Shown here: piece by piece, positions 3,551-54,916 of the stretch
Position numbering within the stretch: position 1 is the stretch's first letter
How the letters are laid out: every line of letters starts with the position of its first letter
Virus record (IMG/VR): IMGVR_UViG_3300045988_121070
Origin: a virus
Length of the DNA: 64,000 nt
Strand: one strand, 5' to 3'
Translations under genes and position numbers: made by a program
Notes under the pieces: model-generated
Seen by the model: the letters and a program-made list of their open reading frames with translations, nothing else
Databases searched by the model: none
Told to the model about the DNA's origin: nothing

Positions 3551-5188
3551 TTACGCATTGATTTTTGCCATGTACTCCTTGCGGATGCGGGCATTCTCCA
3601 GAGGTGACTTTGTGTGGTCGTAAGCAGGCATACCACCCTCGGCCTTCTGTTCCTCGGCACCCTGGCCGTTGTTAGCAGGAGAGCCAGCAGGTACAGCAGC
3701 AGCAGCCGTTGTCAGTTGCTCAATCTGTCCCTTCTGGTCGGTGATGGTCTGATTAGCGGCGGCCAGTTGGTCCTTAACCTCCTTCAGTTCCTTTTCAGCC
3801 TTCTCGCGAGCAGCAATCTCAGCATTGAGTGCAGTGGTGTGCTCCTCTTTGAGCGTGTTGACAGCTTGCTCGTGTGCATCGTTCAATTCCTTCTCACGAG
3901 CAGAGACGGCATCTTTCTTAGTAGTCTCGGCCTGGCTGACTTGTGTCTTCAGACCCTCGATCAGTTTCAGAGCATCCGCCTTTTCAGTGGCGTTAGTCTC
4001 AAGTGTCTGGTTGAGTGCTTCGAGCATGTCGGGCACGAAGTGAGCGCCCTCAGCGTCCACTACCAGCTCAGGTACACCGCAAGCGGTGGCAATTTTTTCA
4101 TACTGTTTCATATTCTCATTGTTTAAGGGGTTGTTCTTTTCTCCCTCGGTGGCAGAACCACCGAGCACAGTGGCATCCGTGGCAGGAGTGGCAGCGGTGG
4201 CAGCTTCGGCTGCTGGTGCAGGTTCCTGTTCGGGTACATCATCTTCAGGAGCAACGGGAGCCACACGTTCGATAGGCTGTGCGGTGCCGTTGGCTACCTC
4301 GAAAGCACGGGTGATAACCTCTCCGAGTGTCATCTGGCCATCGCAGAGGATGCCCTTGACCTTTTCAGCCTCGAAGACCTTACCATGGATATGCTCATCC
4401 TTAGCAGCAGGAAAAGCCTTTTGGATGTCCGAGCGGAACTGTACGCCATCCTCCTTCAGTTCGTCGATGAGCACCTTATCATTCTTCGGGTCATCGGCGA
4501 GGTCACGATACCATTTGTTTTTGTCGTAGGACTCTGGATCGTAAAGTTCGTGGAACGTCTCGTTGGTGTATTTGTTGGTCGTACCGTTCTTTTCTGTGTA
4601 GAACACAGCCATGACACCGATAGAGCCAAACATGTCTTTGGGGTGCATGTAATACACCTCGTCACACTGAGAAGCCAGGTACATGGCAGCAGAGGCACAG
4701 AGACCATCGACGAAAGCATACACTTTCTGTCCGCGTTCGTGTGCATAGTCGATAGCCTGCTTAAAGTCGTTGATAGCCCAAGCGGAGCCACCAGGCGAGT
4801 TAATGACAAAGACATGTGCCTTACAGAACTCGTTATTAGCAGCCTCCATGAGCCAGTCGCGCAGATCCATCGAGCCATAGGAGCAGGCACCACCTTCGCG
4901 GGTGATAGGACCGGCCACCGGCATGACATTGACGAAAGGCGCATCCATGTCCTCCATCCACCAGCGGCTTTCTACCTTGCCTTGCTCAGTCACCTGGTAC
5001 TCCTTGATTTCGGGAGCGGCATCCTCGGCAGACTTGATGAGCTGCATGGCGTATGGCTTTTTCTTTTTGTCGAACTCCAAAGCGACGTGACCATTCAGGT
5101 TCTGTTCCCACATGGTACGAGAACCATGCACGTATTCCGGCATGATCATCCACTTCTTCGTTGACAGGATTTCTAATAGTCCATTCAT
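3551..5188 (-). CDS. prohead protease (S49/SppA-ClpP family) fused to a coiled-coil scaffold region
   Basis: VINSPGGSAWAINDF and GLCASAAMYLAS...GSIGV motifs; Ala/Pro linker followed by a long coiled-coil C-terminus, as in lambda gpC/Nu3. Confidence 0.8.
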   Translation of the reverse strand: MNGLLEILSTKKWMIMPEYVHGSRTMWEQNLNGHVALEFDKKKKPYAMQLIKSAEDAAPEIKEYQVTEQGKVESRWWMEDMDAPFVNVMPVAGPITREGGACSYGSMDLRDWLMEAANNEFCKAHVFVINSPGGSAWAINDFKQAIDYAHERGQKVYAFVDGLCASAAMYLASQCDEVYYMHPKDMFGSIGVMAVFYTEKNGTTNKYTNETFHELYDPESYDKNKWYRDLADDPKNDKVLIDELKEDGVQFRSDIQKAFPAAKDEHIHGKVFEAEKVKGILCDGQMTLGEVITRAFEVANGTAQPIERVAPVAPEDDVPEQEPAPAAEAATAATPATDATVLGGSATEGEKNNPLNNENMKQYEKIATACGVPELVVDAEGAHFVPDMLEALNQTLETNATEKADALKLIEGLKTQVSQAETTKKDAVSAREKELNDAHEQAVNTLKEEHTTALNAEIAAREKAEKELKEVKDQLAAANQTITDQKGQIEQLTTAAAAVPAGSPANNGQGAEEQKAEGGMPAYDHTKSPLENARIRKEYMAKINA

Positions 5189-9400: not shown

Positions 9401-9890
9401 TTATCGATTTAGAATTAGATATTTACCTTGTATCGAGGATTGGCACAGGCGAGCGTCTGCTTCATAGCCGAAGGCGACGAGGACAGAACCGAAGAATGGG
9501 GAGCCGGTGGTGCCGTCTGGCTGAATGAACCTGATGCGGTGGCGCATGAAGATCAGCGACTTTGCCTTGGGGAAGATGACTTCCTGAAAGAGTAGGTTAT
9601 CAACCTGGTTCTTCAGTAAGGCGATACCATTGTTATGCTCTGCCAACTTCTCAACGAATGGACGCAGTAGGGAGCGGCTATATGGCGGGTTCATAAAGAC
9701 CAGTGCCGAGGAAGGCCATTCCTGAGCAAGCCCGTTTTGCTCCTTATTATACGATAGTGGCGCTATCTGATAGGGGGGGGGTAATTGGCGAACATGGGTC
9801 CAAATCAAATGGCCCCAACTCATCGATAACCCACTTTGGTGTGTACCACTCATCGGAACTTACTACGGGATTGCGCTGTGTCTTGTTCAT
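9401..9890 (-). CDS. phage Dam-family N6-adenine DNA methyltransferase, frameshifted at a 9-nt homopolymer
   Basis: MNKTQRNPVVSSDEWYTPKWVIDELGPFDLDPCSPI... in one frame and ...NGLAQEWPSSALVFMNPPYSR in the next; the frames join if the run at 9773-9781 (G9 on plus) is 8 nt. Confidence 0.75.
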
Positions 9891-11748: not shown

Positions 11749-11994
11749 TTAATTCTTTAATATGAGCCGGAGAGCGAAAAGGGCGTTACCAGCATCGCCT
11801 ACACGGACTACTTCGTTATATACTCGTTCAAGACTTCGAGGATTGACCTCTTTAAACTTGTTCATTTCAGGGACGGTCAGTTTGTGACCTGCAATCGTAG
11901 CGATTTTGAAGATCATGGCGGTGCGGCTGAGACCGTTGCCTGCAAAGGGTGATTTTGCCCCCCCCTGATGCTTGGATGTTTGAAATATATTCAT
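11749..11994 (-). CDS. hypothetical protein carrying an in-frame 8-nt homopolymer
   Basis: 81-aa ORF; C8 at 11958-11965 (sense G8-CAAAA) encodes QGGA. Confidence 0.45.
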   Translation of the reverse strand: MNIFQTSKHQGGAKSPFAGNGLSRTAMIFKIATIAGHKLTVPEMNKFKEVNPRSLERVYNEVVRVGDAGNALFALRLILKN

Positions 11995-12413: not shown

Positions 12414-13181
12414 TTAAAATAATGTTTGTTGTGATAATTCTATTTTGATATTCTTCTCAGCCATTGCGAAATACTCAGGATGAATTTCAAAGCCAATGTA
12501 ATGGCTTTTCTCCTTGATAGCTGCTATGGCTGTTGTTCCGCTACCTATGAAAGGGTCGAGAATTACCCCCCCCCGTGGCACGAAAAAATGTATGAGCGTC
12601 TGAGGTAAAAGAAGCGGGAATGCTGCCCGATGCTTACCTTTGTGGTTCTTTCCAATTCTCAACACATTGGATAGTTTACCACGTTCAGCGTTCAATAGAG
12701 GAAACTGGCGGCCTTTACAGTCGTGCTTATCGAAAGCGATGATAAATTCATACTCACAGTTGAGCACTCCTGAGTGCATGGCCGGTTCAGACGATTTCTT
12801 ATCCCAGATAAGGATATCACGGATGCGGTCAGCATAGTGGCCAAAGATTTTCATCAGAGCCACCTTATTACCTGTTATCATCATTATGTTATAGAAGACA
12901 GGTCCATTGCTGACACGTAACATTTCGTCGATACACTGACATTGCCAGTTGAAATAGTCATCCATTGACATTGCATCATTCACACGGTTGTCGTAACGAT
13001 TAGCAGGGAGGCCGGTATAACCAAACGTCTCTCCTTTCGTCCATTTGGTATATTTACCAGAATGGATGCGTAGGCCGAAGTTATAAGGCGGTGAAGTGAT
13101 AACAGCATTTACGCTGTTATCCTCCATCTGCCTCATTCCTTCGAGACAATCCATGTTGTATATGGTGTCAATGTTCATCAT
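12414..13181 (-). CDS. beta-class N4/N6 DNA methyltransferase (SPPY motif, possibly N4-cytosine)
   Basis: VITSPPYNFG (motif IV) then PRGGVILDPFIGSGTT (motif I); start trimmed to MMNIDTIYNMDC at 13181; C9 run at 12566-12574 is in frame and encodes RGGV. Confidence 0.85.
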   Translation of the reverse strand: MMNIDTIYNMDCLEGMRQMEDNSVNAVITSPPYNFGLRIHSGKYTKWTKGETFGYTGLPANRYDNRVNDAMSMDDYFNWQCQCIDEMLRVSNGPVFYNIMMITGNKVALMKIFGHYADRIRDILIWDKKSSEPAMHSGVLNCEYEFIIAFDKHDCKGRQFPLLNAERGKLSNVLRIGKNHKGKHRAAFPLLLPQTLIHFFVPRGGVILDPFIGSGTTAIAAIKEKSHYIGFEIHPEYFAMAEKNIKIELSQQTLF

Positions 13182-13182
13182 A

Positions 13183-14010
13183 TTACTTCTGCTCTTCAGG
13201 AATTGGTTTGAAGACCAGGGCCGACCATAGCGCAGCGAATTGGCGACCAGCGTATTTCGCAAGTTCGCTCGATTTGAAGGCCAGGCGAGCGCCGAAGCAC
13301 GCGTTCGAGCGCGAGAAACCGAGACTCGAGTCCGCAGCCGAAAGACCGCAGCGCGCACCGCTAGCCGCGAGACCCCCGACGATCAGCAGCTGTGCCTTAT
13401 CATCCTCACTCATTTCGTCTATCTCCTTCTGGGTATAGAGGTAGAAGTAAGGATAGTAGCGATATTCATCCTCAGTGAATTGTGGCACCCATCCTTCATT
13501 GAGGGCATAGGTGATGATGCGGAGCTGGATGTAAGCAAGCAGGTCAGGTGTACGTGGCGAATTAAACCAGAGGTCTATCATCAGTTCGTTAGCCAGTTTG
13601 TCGCCAGCCTGAGCACGGCGATTGAGGTCATTGCAAGCATCCTCAAAGGTCTTGATGCGTTCTGTGACGGGGCGGTTGTCTGGAGTTTCTGTTTCATCCG
13701 CAGGTATGATGCAAGACCAATCCTCTGCCAAAATATCCTCCCATGAGGGAATGTAGTAGGTGGCAGAAGCCGGTGTTTTACCGTCGTCTGTGAAGGTAAT
13801 CATAATCACCTGGTCGTGGTAGGATATTTCGCCACTTCCAACGGTGCTAATCTTTGGTTTGATAGATGCTGGCAGGGATGTCATCTTTGGCACCACATCC
13901 TTTGCTATACATTGGGGGATCTGCATGACGATTTCCTGATTGTCATGCCACGTAGAACGGGAGGCATGGCCACCCTTTTTCAGACATTCAATAACTGCTG
14001 GAAAATTCAT
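13183..14010 (-). CDS. DUF2829 (Tad2-like) N-terminal domain fused to an unknown C-terminal domain
   Basis: MNFPAVIECLKKGGHASRSTWHDNQ...YYIPSWEDILAEDWSCI fits the DUF2829 pattern; start trimmed to the ATG at 14010 because the upstream codons translate a hairpin element. Confidence 0.5.
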   Translation of the reverse strand: MNFPAVIECLKKGGHASRSTWHDNQEIVMQIPQCIAKDVVPKMTSLPASIKPKISTVGSGEISYHDQVIMITFTDDGKTPASATYYIPSWEDILAEDWSCIIPADETETPDNRPVTERIKTFEDACNDLNRRAQAGDKLANELMIDLWFNSPRTPDLLAYIQLRIITYALNEGWVPQFTEDEYRYYPYFYLYTQKEIDEMSEDDKAQLLIVGGLAASGARCGLSAADSSLGFSRSNACFGARLAFKSSELAKYAGRQFAALWSALVFKPIPEEQK

Positions 14011-14029
14011 ATTACTTTTGGTTATTAGA

Positions 14030-14085
14030 CCCCGCCGTTCTCGGCGGGGCATGGGTTATTGTTTTGTATCGGCGACAGAATCGCC
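14030..14085 (-). repeat. composite palindromic element, the only clearly inverted copy
   Basis: ccccgccg-ttct-cggcgggg (14030-14049) and ggcgacagaatcgcc (14071-14085); the latter lies inside the 3' end of the radical-SAM gene (LGDSVADTKQ). Confidence 0.7.
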
Positions 14086-14934: not shown

Positions 14935-15394
14935 TTAACTTTCGGCGGTTTGGCGAGCCTTTTCGCAGACGAAAATCAGTGCTTGTTTGAGGACACCTGT
15001 TGCTGTTTCCCACTGACGTTGCAGTGCGTTGATAGCCACTTTCTTCTCGTGTTTGAGGTCATAGATTTTCTTCTGCATATTGATGTCATTAAGTTGCATC
15101 TGATGATCGAGATTGTGCATTTCCTGACGCAGTGCTAATGCTTTTTCGCGCTCATCGGGTGTGCCACCAGAGGGCAGTTGTGACCGTTTGAGGTCGATAA
15201 GGCAGATGATGCGGTTGCGTTCTACCTGCTGTTCGGTACGGACGTTGAACACGTCATTGTCGCACTTGGTGCGGATCTGCATGATAGCTTCATCACGGTA
15301 GGTATTGACTTTACCAAACCATGCTCGTACTTCTTCCTCGGAGAGCTGTTTCAGGTCTTCCAGGGGGGGGGTAATTTACGAAATTTTGTTCCAT
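14935..15394 (-). CDS. hypothetical coiled-coil protein, frameshifted at a 9-nt homopolymer
   Basis: MEQNFVNYPP (ATG at 15394) joins LEDLKQLSEEEVRAWFGKVNTYRDEAIMQIRTK... only if the run at 15363-15371 (G9 on plus) is 8 nt. Confidence 0.55.
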
Positions 15395-15453
15395 TGTTGT
15401 AAGATATTAAGAAATTGATACTATTGAGAGCCAGCCGAGAGCGGCTGGGCACT

Positions 15454-16386
15454 CTATACAAGCGTAGCTGCTTCTCCGGCATAGATGCGCATGGCCGGAA
15501 GAATGGCATCGTGAATGAGTTGAGCAGCGATGTGGGCATTAGGATGCGGTTTGCCTGTCTCTCCAGTAAGACGGAGGCGCATGATGTTACGCCACTCGAA
15601 GACGTTATAGGTGTAGGCGACGCGTGTTCCAGCGTCGAGTACCAGAAATCCTCGTGCATCCTGAGCAGGAAGACCGAGTAAAAGGGCGAGTTTATAGGCC
15701 CATTCGCTACACTTCCACATGACACGGGCCAACAGTCGCTTAGACCAGTGAGCGCACTGGAACCAATGCGGCAGACAGATGGTAATACCACCCTTTTTGC
15801 CGAAGTTGACATAGCGGGTAGATTGTTCTGCGATGTTGTTGGGCGATGTGCGGTTTAGTTCACGGCTGGTAGATATCTGCGTGGTGACGCAAACCGTATA
15901 ACGCACCAGGTTCATAGCTGCTGGGAAATTATCAGACGTAGCGTGTTCGACGAACTGCTGGAGTGTCACCTCGTATGGACGCAGCTTTTCTTCGATGCTG
16001 GGACTATCCATGAGATACTGGATGTTGGTGCTGATATAATAGCAGCGTGTCTTTGCCTTTTTATCCTTATGATAGCGGATGCCCACATAGGGTGTGTTTG
16101 TGAGGACCGTAAAGAGCCAAAGCGGTGGTTGAGAGGACGCTTTCTTACCACCATTGCTGGGTGTAGCGTTAGTCAGTTCTGAAGGAACAACATCAGAAAT
16201 AATGAAGTAACGTGATCCATGTCTGAACATCGACAGATGGTTACGTTTCTTCAACATTTCGCAGAACTCTTCTGCGGTTTTCTTGCCGCCTTCAGAGGCA
16301 TAGCAGAGACGGGCAGCCCGTGCTACCTGTTCGTGCCAGTCTTCAGGAGCCGGCCAAAGTTCGACTGATGGTTTGATGAGATACAT
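15454..16386 (-). CDS. thyX: ThyX-like flavin-dependent thymidylate synthase
   Basis: ARLCYAS...NHLSMFRHGSRYF and STSRELNRTSPNNIAEQSTRY resemble the ThyX core and its RHR-type motif region; divergent. Confidence 0.6.
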   Translation of the reverse strand: MYLIKPSVELWPAPEDWHEQVARAARLCYASEGGKKTAEEFCEMLKKRNHLSMFRHGSRYFIISDVVPSELTNATPSNGGKKASSQPPLWLFTVLTNTPYVGIRYHKDKKAKTRCYYISTNIQYLMDSPSIEEKLRPYEVTLQQFVEHATSDNFPAAMNLVRYTVCVTTQISTSRELNRTSPNNIAEQSTRYVNFGKKGGITICLPHWFQCAHWSKRLLARVMWKCSEWAYKLALLLGLPAQDARGFLVLDAGTRVAYTYNVFEWRNIMRLRLTGETGKPHPNAHIAAQLIHDAILPAMRIYAGEAATLV

Positions 16387-26932: not shown

Positions 26933-27064
26933 ATAATGCTTATTTTGTTACAAAGATACAAAGAAGCGGCAGCGAGGACGGGACAAAGAGACTTTGGAGG
27001 GACGGTGATAAAATCGCCTTGCAATAGACGGAACAAAAAACCGCTGGCAGAACCAGCGGGAACA

Positions 27065-27307
27065 CTAAAAGAAGTATTCGATAAGGAGGACGGTTTTGGG
27101 GTAGTGAGCGAGAGAGAGGATGTCTTCAGGCAGCTGCATGGCATCGTAGCGGGTGTTTAGGGTGCAAGCGACACCTCCTGATGCTACGTTGACGGGGACT
27201 ATTTGCCCCCCCCCCCTAAACAGCCTTGGAGGTGCGGAGGTAGTTTGGGAAAGCGGGAGAGCTGTCATGCTATGACAGCATACGGAACGACTTTTCTTAT
27301 AGGTCAT
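27065..27307 (-). CDS. TRD-like cassette M12 (intact as sequenced)
   Basis: MTYKKSRSVCCHSMTALPLSQ..RGGGQIVPVNVASGGVACTLNTRYDA...LLIEYFF; C11 at 27206-27216 is in frame; hairpin element 27261-27290 embedded; paralog of M3. Confidence 0.55.
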   Translation of the reverse strand: MTYKKSRSVCCHSMTALPLSQTTSAPPRLFRGGGQIVPVNVASGGVACTLNTRYDAMQLPEDILSLAHYPKTVLLIEYFF

Positions 27308-27550
27308 ATTCAATAAATACACATTGGGATGTTTCGCCGGCCATTAGAGCAGAAGCGACACGGCCATCCTCCTTGACACGAGCACGGCGGAGTTTGGAGG
27401 TAGGGTAAGCCATATCGAAGACCCCATTGGGGAGGCATTCGATATATCCGCTTTCGGTGGCCTGGCGGACTTGGAGCACGATTTGCCCCCCCTATTGGCG
27501 ATGGTAAGGAACGGGCGACGCAGTTCATAGTGATGGACGTTAGAACTCAT
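27297..27550 (-). CDS. TRD-like cassette M11 (broken; needs an 8-nt run)
   Basis: MSSNVHHYELRRPFLTIANRGG | QIVLQVRQATESGYIECLPNG...GRVASALMAGETSQCVFIEYDL; C7 at 27486-27492. Confidence 0.5.
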
Positions 27551-27715
27551 ATTCAATCAAGACATAAGGAGTGGTGTTATACATGCCTGTATCGGAATCT
27601 TTGCCAATACCCCCCCTGAAAACGAGGTAATGGTGTTGCAGATCTGCTTCAAGTTGTAACGGAGAACCAGACCTTTCGTATCACGAATCCAGCCGATGAA
27701 GTTATAGGTTGTCAT
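27540..27715 (-). CDS. TRD-like cassette M10 (broken; needs an 8-nt run)
   Basis: MTTYNFIGWIRDTKGLVLRYNLKQICNTITSFSGG | GIGKDSDTGMYNTTPYVLIEYEF; C7 at 27610-27616. Confidence 0.5.
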
Positions 27716-27848
27716 ATTCTATCAGGAGGCAATGAGGACATTTATAATCAGTAGCACGAAGTGCCGGAGAGACCAAAAGCCATTTGCCCCCCCCTGACTT
27801 CCATTCAAAAGCGTGGGATAAAGGATGAACGCCTACCTTATAAATCAT
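27702..27848 (-). CDS. TRD-like cassette M9 (intact as sequenced, 48 aa)
   Basis: MIYKVGVHPLSHAFEWKSGGGKWLLVSPALRATDYKCPHCLLIEYDNL; C8 at 27787-27794 is in frame (translated codon by codon). Confidence 0.5.
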   Translation of the reverse strand: MIYKVGVHPLSHAFEWKSGGGKWLLVSPALRATDYKCPHCLLIEYDNL

Positions 27849-27991
27849 ATTCTATCAGGATATACCCCCCCCCCATTTGCGGCCAACACCGTTTGGACGA
27901 TGCCGGCAGTACCTTGAACATTACCATCAAAACCATTACGGAAGGTATCGTAATATAGGTTCCCAATACGAAGGATGTTGCTATAAATCAT
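27838..27991 (-). CDS. TRD-like cassette M8 (broken; needs a 9-nt run)
   Basis: MIYSNILRIGNLYYDTFRNGFDGNVQGTAGIVQTVLAANGGG | YILIEYDL; C10 at 27865-27874. Confidence 0.5.
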
Positions 27992-28282
27992 ATTCGATAA
28001 TTACATTATTGACGTGAGCGGTGATGATTGTAGCAGAGGGGTTACGAAAATAATTACAGACGAGTTCGGGCACCCCCCCATCTTAGCATCCTGACGGTAG
28101 AAACGGAGGTCGCCATTCGGGAGCCAGTGAGCAGCGATGATATCACGGCGAGAAAGACCAAGCCGAGAACGGCTGGGAGTGGTGGCGGAGGAACCAGCGG
28201 GGGAACCGCTGGACGCTGTGGAATTGGGGGCTGCGATAGTATCGCAGCATACGGGACAATCTACAATTCTCTTTCTATCCAT
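27981..28282 (-). CDS. TRD-like cassette M7 (broken; needs an 8-nt run)
   Basis: MDRKRIVD[CPVCCDTIAA..PSRSRLGL]SRRDIIAAHWLPNGDLRFYRQDAKMGG | VPELVCNYFRNPSATIITAHVNNVIIEYDL; C7 at 28073-28079; palindromic element 28158-28260 embedded in frame. Confidence 0.5.
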
Positions 28283-28556
28283 ACGAGGTTATCTTTTTGC
28301 ACGGAGGTGATGGTGTTTGTGACTTGGGCGGAACCGAGTTCGATAACTTGGTGAAAGTTGCGGTCAGCATGAGCACCACGGAATGAGAGGCAGTCGAGGT
28401 CACGATTAACCTGCGAACATATACGGACAGAAGCGGCACGGCTGTCTGGGTCTCGGTCGTAGAGGTAGGTCATGGTTTGCCCCCCCTACCTCGGCTTGCT
28501 GAGATACGGACTTTGGCCATGTCTGCGGACGGTTCAGTATCTTTAATCAAGAGCAT
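28261..28556 (-). CDS. TRD-like cassette M6 (broken; needs an 8-nt run)
   Basis: MLLIKDTEPSADMAKVRISASRGRGG | QTMTYLYDRDPDS...GSAQVTNTITSVQKDNLVWIEREL; C7 at 28480-28486; paralog of M5. Confidence 0.5.
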
Positions 28557-28722
28557 ATTCTACTAATAAGAGGTTATCTTTCTGAATGCCAGTGATAGTG
28601 TTAGAGCAGCCATCGGTTGCAGGGAGCAAAAAACGGTCGGAGAAACGGCAATGCCCCCCCCTATCTCCGTAGATACGGCGCACGGCTTTTGCGTGAGCGG
28701 TGCGGACAGCACGGAGGATAGA
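28543..28722 (-). CDS. TRD-like cassette M5 (in frame but with no start codon of its own)
   Basis: ...ILRAVRTAHAKAVRRIYGDRGGHCRFSDRFLLPATDGCSNTITGIQKDNLLLVEYALD; C8 at 28654-28661 is in frame; separated from the core ORF by two hairpin elements (28725-28779) and a frame change. Confidence 0.4.
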   Translation of the reverse strand, partial: SILRAVRTAHAKAVRRIYGDRGGHCRFSDRFLLPATDGCSNTITGIQKDNLLLVEYALD

Positions 28723-28783
28723 AGCCCCACCGAAAACGGCGGGGAGTGACGGCTTAGACCCGCTGGGAGAACCAGCGGGCACA

Positions 28784-30465
28784 CTAACCTTTGGCACGGA
28801 TGGCTGCGATTTCTTCATCAGAGAGTTTGTGATCGGTGACGGTGTAGTAAATCTTAGCGGCAGCATCCGTCTCGTTTTTGGAGAGGAACTTTATCACGCT
28901 GTCCGGCTTCAGGAAGAACTTTTCACTAACCTCCTCTTCGAGAATGTCAGCGATGCAGGTGGTGAGTTCAAAGGGACGCGGGAACTCATACTGCGTATCG
29001 CCGAGGATATCCTGACGGATGGAGATCATATAGACCCGTTCGCGGTTCTGAGCTACGCCATAGTGTTTGCTGTTCAGAATGCCAAACTTCGTTTTCTTCT
29101 CACGTTTCTCTTTGCCCCAGGGGTAAGGGAATGACGGTGCGAGGAAGTTGACATAGCCATGTTTCTCCAGTAGGGCGCACCATTCTTTGAAGTCGGGCAT
29201 GTTGACGCTGTTAATGAGGGCAGAGACATTTTCCTGAAGGAGGATTTTCGGGCGCATCTGTTCAACAGCCTTTTCGGTGTACCAAAGGACTGCAGAGCGG
29301 GTGTCAGAGCCTTTTTTGATGCCCGCACGTTTTCCCGCCTGACTGATGGACTGACAGGGCGTGGAGTAAGTCAAGAAATCGATGTCAGCATCCGAGAGGT
29401 CGCTCCAGTCACATTTGGTCATGTCGCCCCTATTGAGGGAGGCATACTGCGGGAAGAGCAAGTTATGAGCAACCACGGCAGGCTGTTCATTGATTGGCCT
29501 TTTGCTTTCGGGGTCGAACTCAGCCCATGCCACGAGTTCATAGGCGAAATCAGGATAACGCTCACGGAGCATGTCAAAGGCTATGCACTGGGAGTCATAG
29601 CCAGAGCAAAGCGTAACCACCTTCAGAGGCTGTTCGCAGAAATTGCGAGACATCTGGAAAGTGGGTAGCGCAAACATATCCTGCACTTCACCAGGTATGC
29701 GGCGGTCGGTGGGGAATAAAAAAGCCTCGTAGATATACATGAGGACATCGCAGACGATTGAATTGCCAGCGAGCTTGTAGTGGTTGGAGTTGGAGATTAT
29801 CTGCACGGGGCCAAAACGCTCTTCGGTTTTGGCGGCCTTGATTTTTTCGTAAGCAAGGGTGTAGTTCTGACGGAGGAGTTCTATTTCCTCGGCATCATCA
29901 TCCTCTTCATCCCCAGCGACGGAATCACTGGGCACAGTATCTGGAGCATCTGCAGGTGCTTCGTTTTCTTCATCTGAGGGAGGTGTTTCGAGGCTTTCCA
30001 AAGAATCGCGGAAGGCTTCTTCTACTTCTTTCATTGTTGCCGAGGGTTCCAAACCGAACACGCTTAACTCATTATCGACATCAACGAAAGCGGTGTATGA
30101 CTTTTGTTCAGTAGCCATCAACTGAGAAATCTGGCGTTCAGGAACGCCCATTAGCCTATAGCATTCGGGGGGGGGTAAGTTTTCGGATGTCGAAGTACCT
30201 CACGGGGTGCTTCGGATCCTTTTTGCCCTGGAGGTCAGGGTGGTTGTCGGGATAAATTTTTGCAATCATACGCTCTTTATGTTTAATATCAAATCTTTCT
30301 TCACAAACAAAATAATGATTACGGGCAGAGATACCCGCCAGAATCGTTACAGCGATGCCATGATGCGACCGCTGATTATAGGTGTCGAGCATTTCGCCGT
30401 GAAAGTTCGGTCGCCATTGCCCCCCCCCTAATCATGGCATTCAGCCGAGAATTAAAATGGTTCAT
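28784..30465 (-). CDS. circularly permuted DNA (cytosine-5) methyltransferase with order TRD(M4)-IX-acidic linker-X-I..VIII; broken by two 1-nt frameshifts
   Basis: MNHFNSRLNAMIRGG | QW..SHHGIAVTILAG..VRYFDIRKLTPP | ECYRLMG (IX), HYKLAGNSIV (X), VTLCSGYDS (I), AEFD (II), YSTPCQSISQAG (IV), LLQENV (VI), QNRERV (VIII). The runs C9 at 30420-30428 and G9 (plus) at 30167-30175 must each be 8 nt for a single ~559-aa product. The intact ORF 28784..30151 alone lacks the TRD and the first half of motif IX. Confidence 0.8.
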
Positions 30466-30650
30466 AAGTCATATTCTATTAAAACGACAGTCATTGGGAA
30501 GTGTGCAAGCGTCAGGATATTCGTAGGTCCGACAGCATCGTAACGAGTGGTAAGGGTAGCAGCGCAGCCGTCGGCTGTGACATTGACAGGAGCGATTTGC
30601 CCCCCCCTGGTAGTGCGGAATGCACCGATGTTTGTTATCTTACAGATCAT
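30462..30650 (-). CDS. TRD-like cassette M3 (intact as sequenced)
   Basis: MICKITNIGAFRTTRGGQIAPVNVTADGCAATLTTRYDAVGPTNILTLAHFPMTVVLIEYDL; C8 at 30600-30607 is in frame. Confidence 0.55.
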   Translation of the reverse strand: MICKITNIGAFRTTRGGQIAPVNVTADGCAATLTTRYDAVGPTNILTLAHFPMTVVLIEYDL

Positions 30651-30849
30651 ATTCAATCAATACGCCAGTGGCACCACGAGTGGTTTTTAGAAGAAAATTA
30701 GCGACACTACTTTTCTGATACTGAGCTTTGATGGTTCGACATACCCCCCCCTGATAAGCGTTAATAAGCCCCAGCCGAGAACGGCTGGGAGTGGTGTTTT
30801 TTTGAGCTGCGATGGTATCGCAGCATACGGGACACTTTTCATAGGTCAT
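30640..30849 (-). CDS. TRD-like cassette M2 (intact as sequenced)
   Basis: MTYEK[CPVCCDTIAAQKNTTPSRSRLGL]INAYQGGVCRTIKAQYQKSSVANFLLKTTRGATGVLIEYDL; C8 at 30744-30751 is in frame; palindromic element 30770-30834 embedded. Confidence 0.55.
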   Translation of the reverse strand: MTYEKCPVCCDTIAAQKNTTPSRSRLGLINAYQGGVCRTIKAQYQKSSVANFLLKTTRGATGVLIEYDL

Positions 30850-30987
30850 ACTCGATGAGAATTTTGGGTTTGTCTGTATCGTGGCCATTGCCCCCCCTGC
30901 GAGACAGAGGGCGATACCTTTTGGGGACACCACTATGCCGTTTTGGGAAGGGCTATAACGACCGAGGATGATAGGACGTGTGACCAT
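30839..30987 (-). CDS. TRD-like cassette M1 (the run length decides between a separate cassette and an M1-M2 fusion)
   Basis: MVTRPIILGRYSPSQNGIVVSPKGIALCLAGG...; with the C7 at 30891-30897 as sequenced it reads through into the M2 frame (115-aa ORF 30640..30987); with 8 nt it ends GGGNGHDTDKPKILIEYDL + TGA. Confidence 0.5.
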
Positions 30988-32070: not shown

Positions 32071-33219
32071 TTATTCCAGGGACATGGGCATACAGAGTTC
32101 GAGGAGAACGGAGTTGTCGGCATCCTCTTTGAGGAGGAGTGGGCGGTTAGGTGCTGACAGTTCTACGCGCACGTTATCGGTGCTGATGTTGCCGAGTAGG
32201 TTCATCAGTTGCGAAGCCTTGATGCCTATGGCGAAGTTATCGGGTAGTGTCAGCGGGTTCTCCACCTCGGCGAGTGTCAGGTTCTCGGAAGCGGACTTTG
32301 AGAAGTCGATGTCGGCAGCAGATAGGTTGACAAACATGCCATCCTTAGAGAACTTAACCATGTTGGATGCGTCGGAAGCCATGAGTTGCACACGTTTGAG
32401 GGCACCCATGAATGAGGCCACCGGCAGGACGGCATGGTAGGGATTTTCCTTGGGGATGACTGAGTTGTAATTAGGATAACGCTGTTCGATGTCGCGGATG
32501 GTGAATGATATATCGCCGGCACGTAGGCATACATGCTTACGGTCGAACAGCACTTCAATCTCCTCTACGCCGAGGAATGGAGTCTGCAGAGAGCCGACGA
32601 TGGTGTTTGGAATAAGGATGACCGCCTTTTCGCCCGTGAGGAACGGTACACCATGGAAGTATTCATACTTATAGAGCGAGTGTCCGTCAGATCCGACGAA
32701 TACCACCTTATCGTCGAGCACGTCGAGTGCCACAGCAGCCATCTGAGGACGCAGTGTGTCATTGAACGAAGTACATCCGCTTGCAGCCTTGACTGCAGGA
32801 AAAAAAATGTTAGCAGGTACGACAAACGATGTTGTTGGGTCGGTGACATCCGCCACCTTGGGGAACTCGGCAGACTCCTCGATAGGTACAGACACCTGTC
32901 CGCTCTGATAGATGACTGTGGCGAGGTGGCGCTCCAGGTCGATGTCGAACGTCACGGGCTGTTCAGGCAGAGAGCCGAGCAGTGGGATGATGTCGGCAGC
33001 AGGCAGGCAGAACGGATGGAACATATCGCCGGACTCCATGAGGATGCCCACCGGCATGGTGAGGGCGTTTTCCTGTGAGGAGCCAGTGATGAAGAACTTA
33101 TCACCCACCTGTGTAAAGAGGTGGTTGGTGAGGATGGGAAGGCTACATTTGCGCTGGATGACTGAGCCGGTAGCCTTCAGGATGCGGAGCAGTTCGCGGG
33201 ATGATACGTTGAATTTCAT
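32071..33219 (-). CDS. dnaN: DNA polymerase III beta sliding clamp
   Basis: 382 aa; [35 protein letters not shown]... is a typical DnaN N-terminus with three-domain length. Confidence 0.8.
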
Positions 33220-33236: not shown

Positions 33237-33333
33237 CAGCGATGGAATCGCTGCATACAAGAAACGGGACATTGGGGACCCCGCCGAGAACGGCGGGGGG
33301 GGGTGGCTATAGCCCAGCGGTTTCCCCGCTGGG
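33237..33333 (+). repeat. composite palindromic element (A 33237-33255, tail CATACAAGAAACGGGACA, B 33279-33298 extended to a G9 run at 33295-33303, reversed B-type hairpin 33313-33333)
   Basis: direct reading of stems and loops. Confidence 0.8.
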
Positions 33334-45171: not shown

Positions 45172-45190
45172 ACCCTATAATACCTATAAT

Positions 45191-45325
45191 ATGAATAAGA
45201 CTATTGAGAACCAGATTATCTCTCTGCATAAAGAGGGCTGGAAAGTAGAGAACATCGCGAGCCTTGCCAAGGTGAAGCCGGCGAGAGTGAAAGCCATTCT
45301 TAGAGAGAAAAACCTGTTGATGTGA
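45191..45325 (+). CDS. small HTH-like protein, 44 aa
   Basis: MNKTIENQIISLHKEGWKVENIASLAKVKPARVKAILREKNLLM. Confidence 0.4.
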   Translation: MNKTIENQIISLHKEGWKVENIASLAKVKPARVKAILREKNLLM

Positions 45326-45923
45326 TGAGCGAGAATAAAGACTGGGTAGGTGGCAGAGCTTCGGTGTTCAAGACATTGGGGGCGAGTAACCACACGGACC
45401 ATGAACGTGCGTGGGGTGACTATTATGCCACCGAACCCAAAGCGACGGAATGGCTGCTGAAGTTGGAGCAGTTTGACGGTCCCATTCTGGAACCGGCATG
45501 TGGCGAGGGACATATCTCGAAAGTGCTGATTAGGGGGGGCAAAACGTCACTTCGCGAGACATCATCGACAGAGGCTATGGCGAGGTGGCCGACTTCCTGG
45601 CCATCGACAACCAGGAATGGAACGGGAACATCGTCACCAATCCGCCATACGCCTATGCTCAGGAGTTTGTGGAGAAGGCGCTGCAGATTATCCCAGACGG
45701 GAAAAAGGTGTGTATGTTTTTGAAGCTAACCTTTTTGGAGGGGAAGCAGAGAAAGCACCTTTTCAGGACCCAGCCACCTGCAAGGGTATGGGTGAGTTCG
45801 TCGAGACTGCTATGTGCCATGAATGGTGAGTTTGATAAGATCAGCGGGAGCGCTACGGCCTATGCCTGGTTTGTGTGGGTAAAGGGCTATAAGGGCGAGA
45901 CGGTGATTAAGTGGTTTAACTGA
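45325..45923 (+). CDS. N6-adenine DNA methyltransferase (motif I then NPPY), frameshifted at a G7 run
   Basis: EPACGEGHISKVLIRGG | QNVTSRDIIDRGYGEVADFLAIDNQEWNGNIVTNPPYAYAQEF; the frames join if the G7 at 45533-45539 is G8. Confidence 0.8.
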
Positions 45924-46215: not shown

Positions 46216-46398
46216 ATGAATAATAACGAGACGAGGATGCAGCGACTGGTGAGATTAACGACAATGGCAGGGAAACTCTATATGAGGGACCTGGTGGAGG
46301 TTTCGACGGTGAGCAACATCCATCTGAACAGATACCGGCAGCTGGCAACGGCAGCACGGGAGGAATGGAACAAGAATAAGAGAAGGAAGGCATGTTAG
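46216..46398 (+). CDS. small hypothetical protein
   Basis: 60-aa ORF overlapping the next start. Confidence 0.4.
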   Translation: MNNNETRMQRLVRLTTMAGKLYMRDLVEVSTVSNIHLNRYRQLATAAREEWNKNKRRKAC

Positions 46399-47201
46399 AA
46401 GTGAACCATATCTATGAGGGTGACTGCCTGGAACTGATGGCAGAAATAGCGGATGAGAGCGTGGATGCTATCATCTGCGATTTGCCTTACCAGGTGCTGC
46501 ATAAGGATAACCCGAATGCGCAATGGGACAGAATGATACCGTTTGAGCCTCTTTGGGCGCACTATGAGCGTATCATTAAGCCGAGGGGTGTGATTGTGCT
46601 CTTCGGGCAGGGAATGTTTACCAGCGACCTGATGCAGAGCAACAGGAAGTTGTGGAGATATAACCTGATATGGTACAAAGGACGCGGAACGGGGTTCCTG
46701 AATGCGAATAGGATGCCGATGCGCTGCCATGAGGACATCTGTGTATTCTATAAGCACCTGCCAGTGTATAACCCTCAGATGGGCATTGGTGAGCCGAACC
46801 ACTCGCAAGGGCGATGTGAGCAGCCGAGGAAGAACAGCTGCTATGGGAAGTTCAAGACGGGCAGGACGTATGACTATGATAAGCAGATCAGGAAGGTAGC
46901 CCCTACCCGACCGAACGAGAAATTTCCCCAGTCGATTATCTACATTCAGAAGGAGCACGAGACGACGGTGTATCATCCAACACAGAAGCCCGTGGATCTG
47001 CTTCGCTATCTGATTAGGACTTATACCAATTCGGGGGGGGTAATTTTAGACAATACGATGGGCAGCGGTACGACATGTGTTGCTGCCATCATGGAGAAAC
47101 GGAGGTACATAGGGATAGAGAAAGACCCGAAGTATTTTGCCGTGGCCGAGAAGAGAATAAAAGAAGCGGGGCGGTGGATGACGCTGGACTTCGAGGAATA
47201 A
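46392..47201 (+). CDS. beta-class N6-adenine DNA methyltransferase (DLPY)
   Basis: AIICDLPYQV (motif IV), HPTQKPVDLL, NSGGVILDNTMGSGTT (motif I); G8 at 47033-47040 is in frame and encodes SGGV. Confidence 0.85.
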   Translation: MLEVNHIYEGDCLELMAEIADESVDAIICDLPYQVLHKDNPNAQWDRMIPFEPLWAHYERIIKPRGVIVLFGQGMFTSDLMQSNRKLWRYNLIWYKGRGTGFLNANRMPMRCHEDICVFYKHLPVYNPQMGIGEPNHSQGRCEQPRKNSCYGKFKTGRTYDYDKQIRKVAPTRPNEKFPQSIIYIQKEHETTVYHPTQKPVDLLRYLIRTYTNSGGVILDNTMGSGTTCVAAIMEKRRYIGIEKDPKYFAVAEKRIKEAGRWMTLDFEE

Positions 47202-53914: not shown

Positions 53915-54916
53915 ATGCTGATAGGACTGGTGGACGTGGACGGACACGCCAAGAAAAAGAAATGGGGTGCAACGATATACCCCAACCTCGCACTCGCTAA
54001 GATAGCGAGGTACTGGAGAAATAGGGGGGGGCAAATTGAATGGGCCACTCCCATGAAGCATTACGACATCATATACATGTCAAAGGTGTTTAACTTTTCG
54101 CCTGACGATACCTATATATATAATGCCGACGAGATAGTGAAAGGCGGGACGGGCTATGACCCTACGAGCCAGTTGCCGGAGGAGATAGACCGTCTGCAGC
54201 CGGACTACTCGATATACCCCAACGTGCCGAAAGATACTGCCTACGGATTTCTGACGAGAGGATGCCCGAACAGGTGTAAGTGGTGTGTGGTGCCCAGAAA
54301 AGAGGGTGCCATACGTCCGTATATGGATGTAGATGAGATAGCCATTGAGGGCAGGCGAAAGTTGGTGCTGATGGATAACAACATCTTAGCGGCAGGCGAC
54401 TACTGCATGGAGCAGTTGGAGAAGATCATTGAGAGAGGGTATAGGGTGGACTTTAACCAGGCTCTCGATGCGCGACTGGTGACTGACGAGGTGGCACAGC
54501 TGCTGGCGAGGGTGAAATGGCTTGATAACAACCGCATCCGCTTTGGGTGTGACACGCACGGACAGATAGCGGAGTGTGAGCGGGCTATGGCGCTCATCAA
54601 CAAGTATGGCTTCACGGGGCAGTATTTCCTTTATACGATGCTGACGGATGACTTCAGGGAGTGTTACGAGCGGATAGTGTATTGGTGGCACAGAACGCAA
54701 GAGACGCGGGCCAATCATCATGGGAGGTACGTCTATCCCCATGCACAGCCCTACCGTGACCCGATGAATCCCAACCACCACATACCACAATGGCAAAAGG
54801 ACATGGCGGGATGGGTAAATAAGAAGGCGCACTTTGTGGCGCACTCGTTTGAGGACTTTGAGCCGAGGAAAGGGTTTAGGTGTAAGCAGTACCTGAGAGA
54901 GGCAGGGATAATATAG
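53915..54916 (+). CDS. radical SAM protein with an N-terminal extension, carrying an in-frame G8 run
   Basis: FLTRGCPNRCKWCVVPRKEG (CxxxCxxC); G8 at 54024-54031 encodes RGGQ. Confidence 0.7.
   Translation: MLIGLVDVDGHAKKKKWGATIYPNLALAKIARYWRNRGGQIEWATPMKHYDIIYMSKVFNFSPDDTYIYNADEIVKGGTGYDPTSQLPEEIDRLQPDYSIYPNVPKDTAYGFLTRGCPNRCKWCVVPRKEGAIRPYMDVDEIAIEGRRKLVLMDNNILAAGDYCMEQLEKIIERGYRVDFNQALDARLVTDEVAQLLARVKWLDNNRIRFGCDTHGQIAECERAMALINKYGFTGQYFLYTMLTDDFRECYERIVYWWHRTQETRANHHGRYVYPHAQPYRDPMNPNHHIPQWQKDMAGWVNKKAHFVAHSFEDFEPRKGFRCKQYLREAGII

Follow-up and report, generated by a model that had tools for sequence, protein, structure and literature searches.

We analysed a 64,000-nucleotide (nt) stretch of viral DNA, IMG/VR record IMGVR_UViG_3300045988_121070, whose full length is referred to here as the window. 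From position 30987 to 27065 its minus strand carries 12 short units, M1 to M12, arranged head to tail, together with the core of a circularly permuted C5-cytosine methyltransferase. M4 is fused to this core. The other units are 11 stand-alone mini-genes of 48-100 codons each, and each of these, on evidence given below, encodes one target recognition domain (TRD). An HNH_3 gene ends 187 base pairs (bp) upstream of the array. In the following list, cassette limits run on the minus strand from the ATG to the last base of the stop codon, and "on" or "off" states whether the homopolymer tract, as sequenced, leaves the cassette in frame.

30839..30987, minus strand: M1 TRD cassette, HhaI-like '...GIALCLAGGGNGHDTDKPKILIEYDL'; G7 at 30891-30897, needs 8, off
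30640..30849, minus strand: M2 TRD cassette, '...GGVCRTIKAQYQKSSVANFLLKTTRGATGVLIEYDL'; G8 at 30744-30751, on
30462..30650, minus strand: M3 TRD cassette, RGGQ...CAATLTTRYD...VVLIEYDL; G8 at 30600-30607, on
28784..30465, minus strand: M4 (type-A TRD)-core fusion; G9 at 30420-30428 (RGGQ) and C9 at 30167-30175, both off
28543..28818, minus strand: M5 TRD cassette, '...RRIYGDRGGHCRF...GCSNTITGIQKDNLLLVEYALD'; G8 at 28654-28661, on
28261..28556, minus strand: M6 TRD cassette, '...SRGRGGQ...VTNTITSVQKDNLVWIEREL'; G7 at 28480-28486, needs 8, off
27981..28282, minus strand: M7 TRD cassette, '...KMGGVPELVCNYFRNPSATIITAHVNNVIIEYDL'; G7 at 28073-28079, needs 8, off
27838..27991, minus strand: M8 TRD cassette, '...GIVQTVLAANGGGYILIEYDL'; G10 at 27865-27874, needs 9, off
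27702..27848, minus strand: M9 TRD cassette, '...KSGGGKWLLVSPALRATDYKCPHCLLIEYDNL'; G8 at 27787-27794, on
27540..27715, minus strand: M10 TRD cassette, '...ICNTITSFSGGGIGKDSDTGMYNTTPYVLIEYEF'; G7 at 27610-27616, needs 8, off
27297..27550, minus strand: M11 TRD cassette, '...RGGQIVLQVRQATESGYIECLPNGVFDMAYPTSKLRRARVKEDGRVASALMAGETSQCVFIEYDL'; G7 at 27486-27492, needs 8, off
27065..27307, minus strand: M12 TRD cassette, M3 paralog; G11 at 27206-27216, in frame (8+3)
27041..27059, minus strand: G+C-rich hairpin followed by a T run, a terminator-like end of the array

Ten of the 11 stand-alone units terminate with a hydrophobic strand, the residues E-Y and a few further residues (mostly D/E-x) ahead of the stop codon. 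The exception is M6, which ends ...WIEREL; M5 (EYALD) and M12 (EYFF) have variant tails. In eight stand-alone units the ATG of the next unit sits within the GAATATGA of the E-Y-D codons, the M1 version being GAGTATGA, and each next cassette lies in the +1 frame relative to the preceding one. The ATG embedded at the end of M3 opens a reading frame of six codons only, and M4 begins at an ATG that overlaps the M3 stop. M5 starts at ATG 28818 (MKKSQ...), which lies within the codons for S-D-E-E close to the 3' end of the core gene; relatives keep this start as MKKSP or MRKSP. M12, the last cassette, ends IEYFF with the Tyr codon TAC, and so carries no embedded ATG. Hairpins are present in the N-terminal parts of M2 (two dispersed copies, 30806-30824 and 30770-30789), M5 (one inserted, 28759-28779) and M7 (28230-28248 and 28194-28212), and in M12 (27261-27279).

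The array contains 13 homopolymer tracts of at least 7 nt (range 7-11 nt). Twelve are sense-strand G runs, one per unit, and the remaining one is the sense-C9 run at 30167-30175, which falls in the sequence TPPECYRLMG, motif IX of the core. The G tracts occupy conserved Gly-rich TRD motifs, either R-G-G-Q or the G-G-G that follows a T-L core. As sequenced, M2, M3, M5, M9 and M12 are in frame. M1, M6, M7, M8, M10 and M11 are each one base off, and the M4-core gene is one base off at both of its tracts, each of which needs 8, so that its open reading frame (ORF) begins only at 30151. With G7, translation of M1 runs on in the M2 frame to give a 115-amino-acid (aa) ORF, 30640..30987, that fuses the N-terminal part of M1 to M2. 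This fusion looks incidental because the other out-of-frame cassettes terminate early: M6, M7, M10 and M11 all do so, and read-through into the next cassette is seen only from M1 to M2. The locus had first been described from the DNA letters alone. Every position given in that original prediction proved exact, including those of nine plus-strand CATATTC or CATACTC motifs, and reading each unit in turn reproduced its frame states, five in frame and the rest one base off. It placed the HNH gene about 190 bp upstream, in agreement with the measured distance, and erred only in holding that M5 has no start.

The core ORF, 28784..30151, matches PF00145 in Pfam (E=8e-36). The motifs LCSGYDS, TPCQSIS, ENV, QNRERV, RKLTPPECYRLMG and YKLAGNSIV can be read directly from its translation, and the order along the M4-core gene is TRD, a linker beginning MIAKIYPD, motif IX, an acidic linker, then motifs X, I, II, IV, VI and VIII. 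Motifs IV-VIII, IX and X were aligned by phmmer with the M.HhaI and M.MpeI chains. In the full-length relative P0017, residues 94-111 correspond to M.HhaI 271-288 (IX), 220-241 to 294-315 (X) and 336-511 to 53-204 (IV-VIII). By this order the core is a circularly permuted C5-methyltransferase of the M.BssHII-like "type H". The original prediction had proposed a permuted C5 core; the Pfam match and the aligned order IX, X, IV-VIII both agree with that proposal. A large protein collection yielded 690 core homologues. Among them are 535-aa proteins 98% identical to the window gene with its C-run repaired, and 455-aa proteins truncated exactly like the window gene; the intact 535-aa form, P0001, is present in the related loci L001 and L006, with C8. 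In a subset of the homologues (P0044, P0055, P0056, P0071, P0093 and P0097), motifs II and IV are separated by an insertion of 40-90 aa that is variable and charged ('...KIDWKKFMEYGCE...') and that the window gene lacks. Megablast of the region against GenBank phages returned no match, and tblastn of the core against the same phages returned only distant matches to the catalytic half, at 41% or less. When 185,579 bacterial and archaeal genomes were scanned for the core, no relative was found, and the scan therefore gives no host or prophage clue.

The identity of the cassettes was examined by searching 1.84 billion representative sequences with a profile built from 38 M11-type proteins. At E<=1e-3 the profile matched 660 cluster representatives, of which many are 200-860 aa in length. 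Nine of ten long matches tested by Pfam were PF00145 enzymes, and the match falls in their variable region. P0285 has the canonical motif order and a catalytic part that closely resembles the window core (motif I 'ITLCSGYDSQ'). It carries one TRD only, of M11-like type, which terminates 'LIYVEE' a few residues ahead of motif IX. P0289, P0298 and P0306 are covalent multi-TRD enzymes, and local BLASTP showed that the 672-aa P0289 carries M3-, M8-, M5- and M11-like TRDs in tandem (M3 at residues 265-291, M8 at 316-352, M5 at 393-439). M5 also matches 29 other multi-TRD proteins, and M8 the N-terminal TRD of P0271. By BLASTP, M1, M2, M4, M6, M7, M9 and an additional type of TRD found in relatives, type B, likewise match TRD segments within related multi-TRD enzymes. 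The M2 match is to a TRD segment of P0322 (E=2e-10), and M6 matches such segments in 26 long proteins. A weak sign comes from M1, whose residues 19-35 align by BLASTP to the recognition loop of M.HhaI (241-257). The two tract positions correspond to the Gly-rich TRD motifs of M.HhaI, GKGGQ and SAYGGG, the former containing Gln237, the residue that fills the gap left by the flipped cytosine. Judged by these alignments, the cassettes are TRDs homologous to those that stand in tandem in covalent multispecific C5-methyltransferases. The full-library M11 profile and the BLASTP matches into multi-TRD enzymes thus uphold the original description of the cassettes as TRD-like.

Fifteen related loci from independent metagenomes were compared, of which 12 are distinct (L004 and L005 repeat L003, and L013 repeats L011). 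All contain stop-separated cassette arrays with G tracts, including those of phages whose core is ~70% identical to that of the window. In these more distant phages the cassette order is shuffled, and M8- and M10-type cassettes are found upstream of the core. Free-standing M11-type proteins of ~84 aa form 184 clusters, two of them labelled cytosine methyltransferase by JGI. Near-identical genomes differ by swaps of whole cassettes, whose sharp boundaries coincide with a hairpin or with the IEYDL junction. The M2 body is replaced by another TRD in L001, L006 and L007, M3 is exchanged in L003, and a type-B TRD occupies the M4 slot in L002-L005. These sharp-edged swaps show that recombination reshuffles the cassette set over evolutionary time.

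The hairpins belong to a family of G+C-rich stem-loops that are dispersed through the window, mostly intergenic and nearly all in one strand orientation. We found 13 copies of CCCAGCCG-AGAA-CGGCTGGG, 10 of CCAGCGG-N5-CCGCTGG and 4 of GCWGCGAT-N3-ATCGCWGC. Examples lie at positions 2199, 7728, 18446, 18701, 20552, 30770, 38279, 54961 and 63205, and further ones at 79, 19359, 27041, 28194, 28760, 33314 and 40203. One variant shows compensatory stem changes (GCTGCGAT/ATCGCAGC vs GCAGCGAT/ATCGCTGC). In the N-terminal parts of M2, M5, M7 and M12 the stem-loops are inserted in frame, and there they mark cassette-swap boundaries. A role for the in-cassette hairpins as locus-specific recombination sites was rejected because the same family is spread over the whole window; the hairpins may delimit the swapped segments, but they are not peculiar to the array.

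Many of the related cores carry no TRD of their own. Among the 120 best core homologues listed, 58 begin at the linker MIAKIYPD and lack a TRD. In all three such loci that were read (L011, L014 and L082), a TRD ending IEY-stop lies directly upstream of the TRD-less core. The same types of TRD occur in both states. P0003, P0013 and P0022 have the type-B TRD fused, whereas in L014 it is free-standing and ends '...NMHYVVIEYDKL' followed by a stop. The M10-type TRD is free in the window and in L011 and L082, where it sits directly upstream of the TRD-less cores, and it is fused to the core in P0065 and P0095. Only three types of fused TRD (A, B and M10) were seen among the 120 listed homologues. 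A C5 enzyme without a TRD cannot choose its target, and the TRD must therefore be supplied by a separate peptide or be joined by recoding. Complementation between the parts of C5-methyltransferases split in the variable region is known for natural enzymes (M.AquI) and for engineered ones (PMC3404938, PMC5944983). We infer that the free TRD peptides act in trans on the core, with their shared C-terminal strand as the probable docking element.

Tract lengths were compared among six genomes that are 93-98% identical. All 13 tracts are polymorphic in length, ranging from 6 to 11 nt, and outside the swapped cassettes almost all short indels fall in the tracts. In the six genomes, for example, the M1 tract measures 7/8/7/8/7/6, that of M3 8/7/7/8/7/8, that of M6 7/8/9/7/7/7, that of M12 11/9/9/9/10/8 and the core C-run 9/8/7/7/8/9. 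The M9 tract is 8 nt in the window and 7 in the five other genomes. M7 is in frame (G8) in L006 and M8 (G9) in L007. The set of genes in frame differs from genome to genome: M1, core, M6, M10 and M11 in L001; core, M2', M7 and M10 in L006; and M3, M8, M10 and M12 in L007. One of the few indels outside the G/C tracts was found in L003 and L004 near locus position 5100 (window equivalent 30923). There the G8 of M1 is in frame, but a run of A5 in place of A4 upstream shifts the frame.

Both in-frame and out-of-frame protein forms are present in the protein database. The M11 family is represented by a G8 form (84 aa), by a form with an alternative-frame N-terminus reading R-G-G-G-Q and by a truncated 60-aa form that resembles the ORF of the window with its G7 as sequenced. 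The alternative-frame form is recurrent (P0155-P0164, 82-83 aa, N-terminus MKPNDT...SLKSLRGGGQ), and its MKPNDT N-terminus comes from reading the usual N-terminal DNA in a different frame, starting at a second ATG. An ORF with the TRD body is therefore still present in two of the three tract-length classes.

The tracts are far more frequent in the array than chance or codon usage would provide. The array has 3.3 per kilobase (kb) and the remainder of the window 0.13 per kb, and shuffled versions of the region contained 0.46 runs on average and 4 at most, as against the 13 observed. GGG is the rarest Gly codon of the phage (4.1% in 12 long genes), and GGGGGG encodes none of the 38 Gly-Gly dipeptides in these genes. 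Since GGG is rare elsewhere in the phage, the tracts appear to have been built and kept against codon preference. The gene for the covalent relative P0289 has no G or C run of 6 nt or longer, which argues that the stops and the tracts go together as a derived design. By these measures the G/C tracts look selected. Orthologous cassettes, read in the tract-corrected frame, show a pooled proportion of nonsynonymous differences (pN) of 0.227 vs 0.696 for synonymous differences (pS), with pN/pS of 0.39 upstream of the tracts and 0.23 downstream. Purifying selection thus acts on either side of the tract, which rules out decay.

The junctions bear a comparable signature. At essentially every internal junction (77 or more) Tyr is encoded by TAT, and this codon gives rise to the ATG; in the last cassette of nine arrays Tyr is encoded by TAC. 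Genome-wide the two codons are used 131:132. This pattern, TAT within arrays and TAC at their ends against an even usage elsewhere, argues for selection of the embedded ATG as a start codon. The stops at cassette ends are mixed (TAA/TGA/TAG = 75/21/17). Reassignment of a stop codon was considered and rejected, as all three stops are in use.

We consider it probable that the locus is a phage operon in which one C5 core is served in trans by free TRD subunits, each with its own contingency switch. The position of each ATG inside the E-Y-D codons of the preceding cassette suggests translational coupling. The free TRD peptides would dock non-covalently on the core, probably via the shared C-terminal strand, and each docked peptide would steer methylation to its own target sequence. 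Polymerase slippage would alter tract length and so move each gene into or out of frame independently, and the motif-IX tract of the core would act as a master switch. A phage population could then hold many methylation patterns. The pay-off would be bet-hedging between two kinds of host: in one, methylation blocks the restriction enzymes, and in the other, Type IV enzymes attack methylated DNA. With somewhat less assurance, at a little better than an even chance, we would go further and regard the system as a Type I-like C5 enzyme, a TRD-less core whose specificity is set by a dozen free-standing, interchangeable recognition peptides (50-100 aa each); a tract would toggle each peptide gene, and a master tract would control the core itself.

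Three other accounts of the locus were weighed against the operon with trans-acting TRD subunits. The array might be a cassette library, in which only the core-fused TRD is used and the others form a reservoir that is recombined into the slot via junctions, tracts and hairpins. The sharply bounded replacements of whole cassettes among near-identical genomes would fit such a library, as would the shuffled order in more distant relatives and the fusion of at least three TRD types (A, B and M10) to the core in different phages. Silent copies need no start, yet the arrays show strong selection for the embedded ATG and lack it only in the last cassette. Every cassette, moreover, retains a frame-switch tract of its own, M11-type cassettes are found as complete ORFs of 84 aa across many metagenomes, the slot holds no TRD in many relatives and the types fused among the 120 listed homologues number only three. 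We therefore think it unlikely that the library is what the array is for. The original prediction had put it forward as the second of three explanations, and part of it stands: cassettes are swapped and shuffled on an evolutionary time scale, but the selected starts and the free 84-aa proteins do not agree with silent copies. Less likely again is recoding, by which RNA-polymerase slippage on the G runs, frameshifting at the junctions or both would produce one covalent multi-TRD enzyme whatever the tract length in the DNA. Long homopolymers are known sites of transcriptional slippage, successive cassettes are regularly offset by +1, and covalent multi-TRD relatives exist. The junctions, however, contain no known slippery or shift-prone motif, and at M2-M3 the +1 frame meets a stop two codons ahead of the ATG; programmed +1 frameshifting at the junctions was rejected on these two grounds. 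Selection for the ATG points to initiation rather than shifting, the mixed stops exclude a reassigned codon, and tract lengths differ between genomes in the DNA itself. A DNA-level switch could still be supplemented by slippage during transcription.

The remaining account, to which we give very little credence, is that the locus reflects homopolymer sequencing errors or a dying multispecific methyltransferase gene. Most of the frame defects are indeed single-base homopolymer differences, the commonest sequencing error, and the core is out of frame in four of the six close genomes. The stops between cassettes, however, lie outside homopolymers and are conserved at ~70% core identity, and purifying selection and codon bias show that the reading frames and the tracts are both maintained. 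Three separate runs of one study gave identical lengths at every tract covered, which makes random sequencing error unlikely, and in-frame and out-of-frame forms both recur in the protein database. Decay had been the third explanation of the original prediction, and it fails on the selection seen on both sides of the tracts and on a layout kept at ~70% core identity. The first of the three, tract-driven switching with cassettes acting in trans, is favoured by the polymorphic tracts, the purifying selection, the embedded ATG and the TRD-less cores.

Several observations nevertheless weigh against an operon of independently switched TRD subunits. Pfam found nothing in single cassettes, either as sequenced or repaired. 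PHROGs gave weak matches only (M11 to a 'DNA methyltransferase' phrog, E=1.2e-3), and a profile search of the PDB with M1-type cassettes gave chance matches only. Single cassettes are too short and too variable for these searches. TRD homology emerged only from the full-library M11 profile. AlphaFold2 gave no structural support: it modelled the TRD region of the fused enzyme with a predicted local distance difference test score (pLDDT) below 50 and M11 alone with 52, both of low confidence. The exact run lengths in the window could include sequencing error, which the presence of the tracts and of the stops cannot be. About 31% of tracts are in frame across the six genomes, and neutral drift in length would give the same proportion. 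As sequenced, the core of the window is out of frame and would give no C5 methylation. The identical lengths in the three runs make extremely fast switching unlikely, as they do sequencing error, and differences in tract length between assemblies are not equivalent to high-frequency reversible switching within a clone.

Tracts of this kind are found in other genes of the window as well. The window contains 21 G/C runs of at least 7 nt, of which 17 are in methyltransferase genes. In addition to the array, four methyltransferase genes carry a G/C tract of 7-9 nt; two are of the Dam family (PF05869-like) and two of the N6_N4 family (PF01555), and two of the four are frameshifted. The original prediction dealt with a single locus; the array it described is real, but its tracts are not special to it. 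Three of these four outside tracts vary in length among IMG/VR relatives.

9773..9781, minus strand: C9 tract that frameshifts the Dam-family N6-adenine methyltransferase gene 9401..9853; 8 nt in relative L075
12566..12574, minus strand: G9 tract 'PRGGVILDPFIGSGTT' in the N6_N4 gene 12414..13358, in frame; not matched in relatives by flank search
45533..45539, plus strand: G7 tract that frameshifts the second Dam-like gene 45184..45923 ('...EPACGEGHISKVLIRGG', then QNVT...NPPY after the break); 7/8/7/9/7/9 in relatives
47033..47040, plus strand: G8 tract 'SGGVILDNTMGSGTT' in the N6_N4 gene 46392..47201, in frame; 7-9 nt in 14 relatives

Other G or C runs were also noted. A sense-strand C9 at 15363-15371 appears to split one gene into the ORFs 15351..15812 and 14935..15282 (minus strand), which differ in frame, adjoining a ThyX-type thymidylate synthase gene, 15454..16386. 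A G8 at 11958-11965 (minus strand), in an ORF of ~80 aa, measures 7, 8 or 10 nt in relatives. The G8 at 54024-54031 lies near the N-terminus of ORF 53915..54916 (plus strand), which encodes a weakly radical-SAM-like protein, and reads N-R-G-G-Q-I, the same peptide context as in M11. Upstream of the DnaN-like clamp gene 32071..33219, a short intergenic region contains a G9 at 33295-33303 (C9 on the gene strand) that is flanked by two dispersed hairpins and may control expression as a spacing switch. In addition, ORF 13183-14052 (minus strand) contains a Tad2-like domain (Thoeris anti-defence 2; PF11195, E=5e-11), and the phage thus appears to have anti-defence genes besides its methyltransferases.

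The components of the array are individually known. In the multispecific Bacillus phage enzymes (M.SPRI, M.Phi3TI and M.Rho11sI), as in P0289, P0298 and P0306, one core serves several TRDs. There, however, all TRDs lie in one polypeptide between motifs VIII and IX, with tails of the form 'hhhEP' running into the next, whereas in the window each TRD is a mini-gene with a tail 'hhhEY(D/E)x-stop' that overlaps the next ATG, and a stop follows every cassette in all related loci too. The TRDs of the window also each bear a poly-G tract, unlike the P0289 gene. The motif order of the M4-core is shared with the type H permuted enzymes M.BssHII, M.Alw26I, M2.Eco31I, M.Esp3I and M2.BsaI (PMC5944983). 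These are single chains with one specificity, whereas about half of the listed members of the window family have no fused TRD, and extra TRD genes flank the core on both sides. Activity from separate polypeptides cut in or near the variable region is known for M.AquI, M.EcoHK31I and engineered split forms of M.SssI, M.MpeI and M.HhaI (PMC3404938, PMC5944983). The TRD-less cores that follow a TRD and stop in L011, L014 and L082 are likewise separate genes. Split enzymes, however, consist of two fixed halves that each hold conserved motifs, whereas the detached piece in the window would be a TRD alone (48-100 aa) in many versions.

All 13 tracts lie within coding sequence, vary between close relatives and set the frame, as contingency loci do. 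Slippage at homopolymers within coding sequences leads to mixed populations, which have been read as bet-hedging (bioRxiv 10.1101/2025.10.21.683753; PMC9577141). Type III mod phasevarions, the poly-G tract of NgoAV hsdS in Neisseria, T2 agt and the receptor-binding poly-G of Campylobacter Fletchervirus usually have one tract per gene and turn a whole enzyme on or off. The window array, by comparison, has 13 tracts in a 3.9-kb operon, one per specificity module and one in the core, and this would allow combinatorial specificity. The T2 agt poly-A locus hedges between two Type IV systems (bioRxiv 10.1101/2025.10.21.683753), and it thus provides a tested rationale for switching DNA-modification genes. 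Silent donors of the pilE/pilS type have no start, whereas an ATG is present at essentially every internal junction of the array. In Type I HsdS and Type IIB S subunits (BsaXI) specificity likewise resides in a separate, exchangeable protein whose variation alters the methylome. Those systems are based on N6-adenine methylation, large two-TRD subunits and shuffling by invertases, whereas the window has C5 chemistry and single-TRD peptides. No recombinase was seen near the window array, and no cassette matched a Pfam family (Methylase_S included) beyond a PF00145-related context; the likeness to HsdS is functional only. In the literature we found no C5 enzyme described with free-standing or tract-bearing TRD genes, and no array with a tract for each specificity module. 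The combined layout therefore appears to be new.

DNA recognition by C5-methyltransferases is thought to require a TRD within the enzyme chain. Natural detachable TRD peptides, if confirmed, would change that view, and would offer a kit of small specificity modules for programmable cytosine methylation. As a contingency-locus system, the array would also be more elaborate than any so far seen in a virus. One phage lineage could show thousands of methylomes, and as the other methyltransferases bear tracts too, the entire viral epigenome would be stochastic. In metagenomes the family is abundant and makes up hundreds of protein clusters; the GenBank phage records searched contain no close relative. 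Together, the tracts of the array and those of the four other methyltransferase genes point to population-level bet-hedging of the viral methylome.

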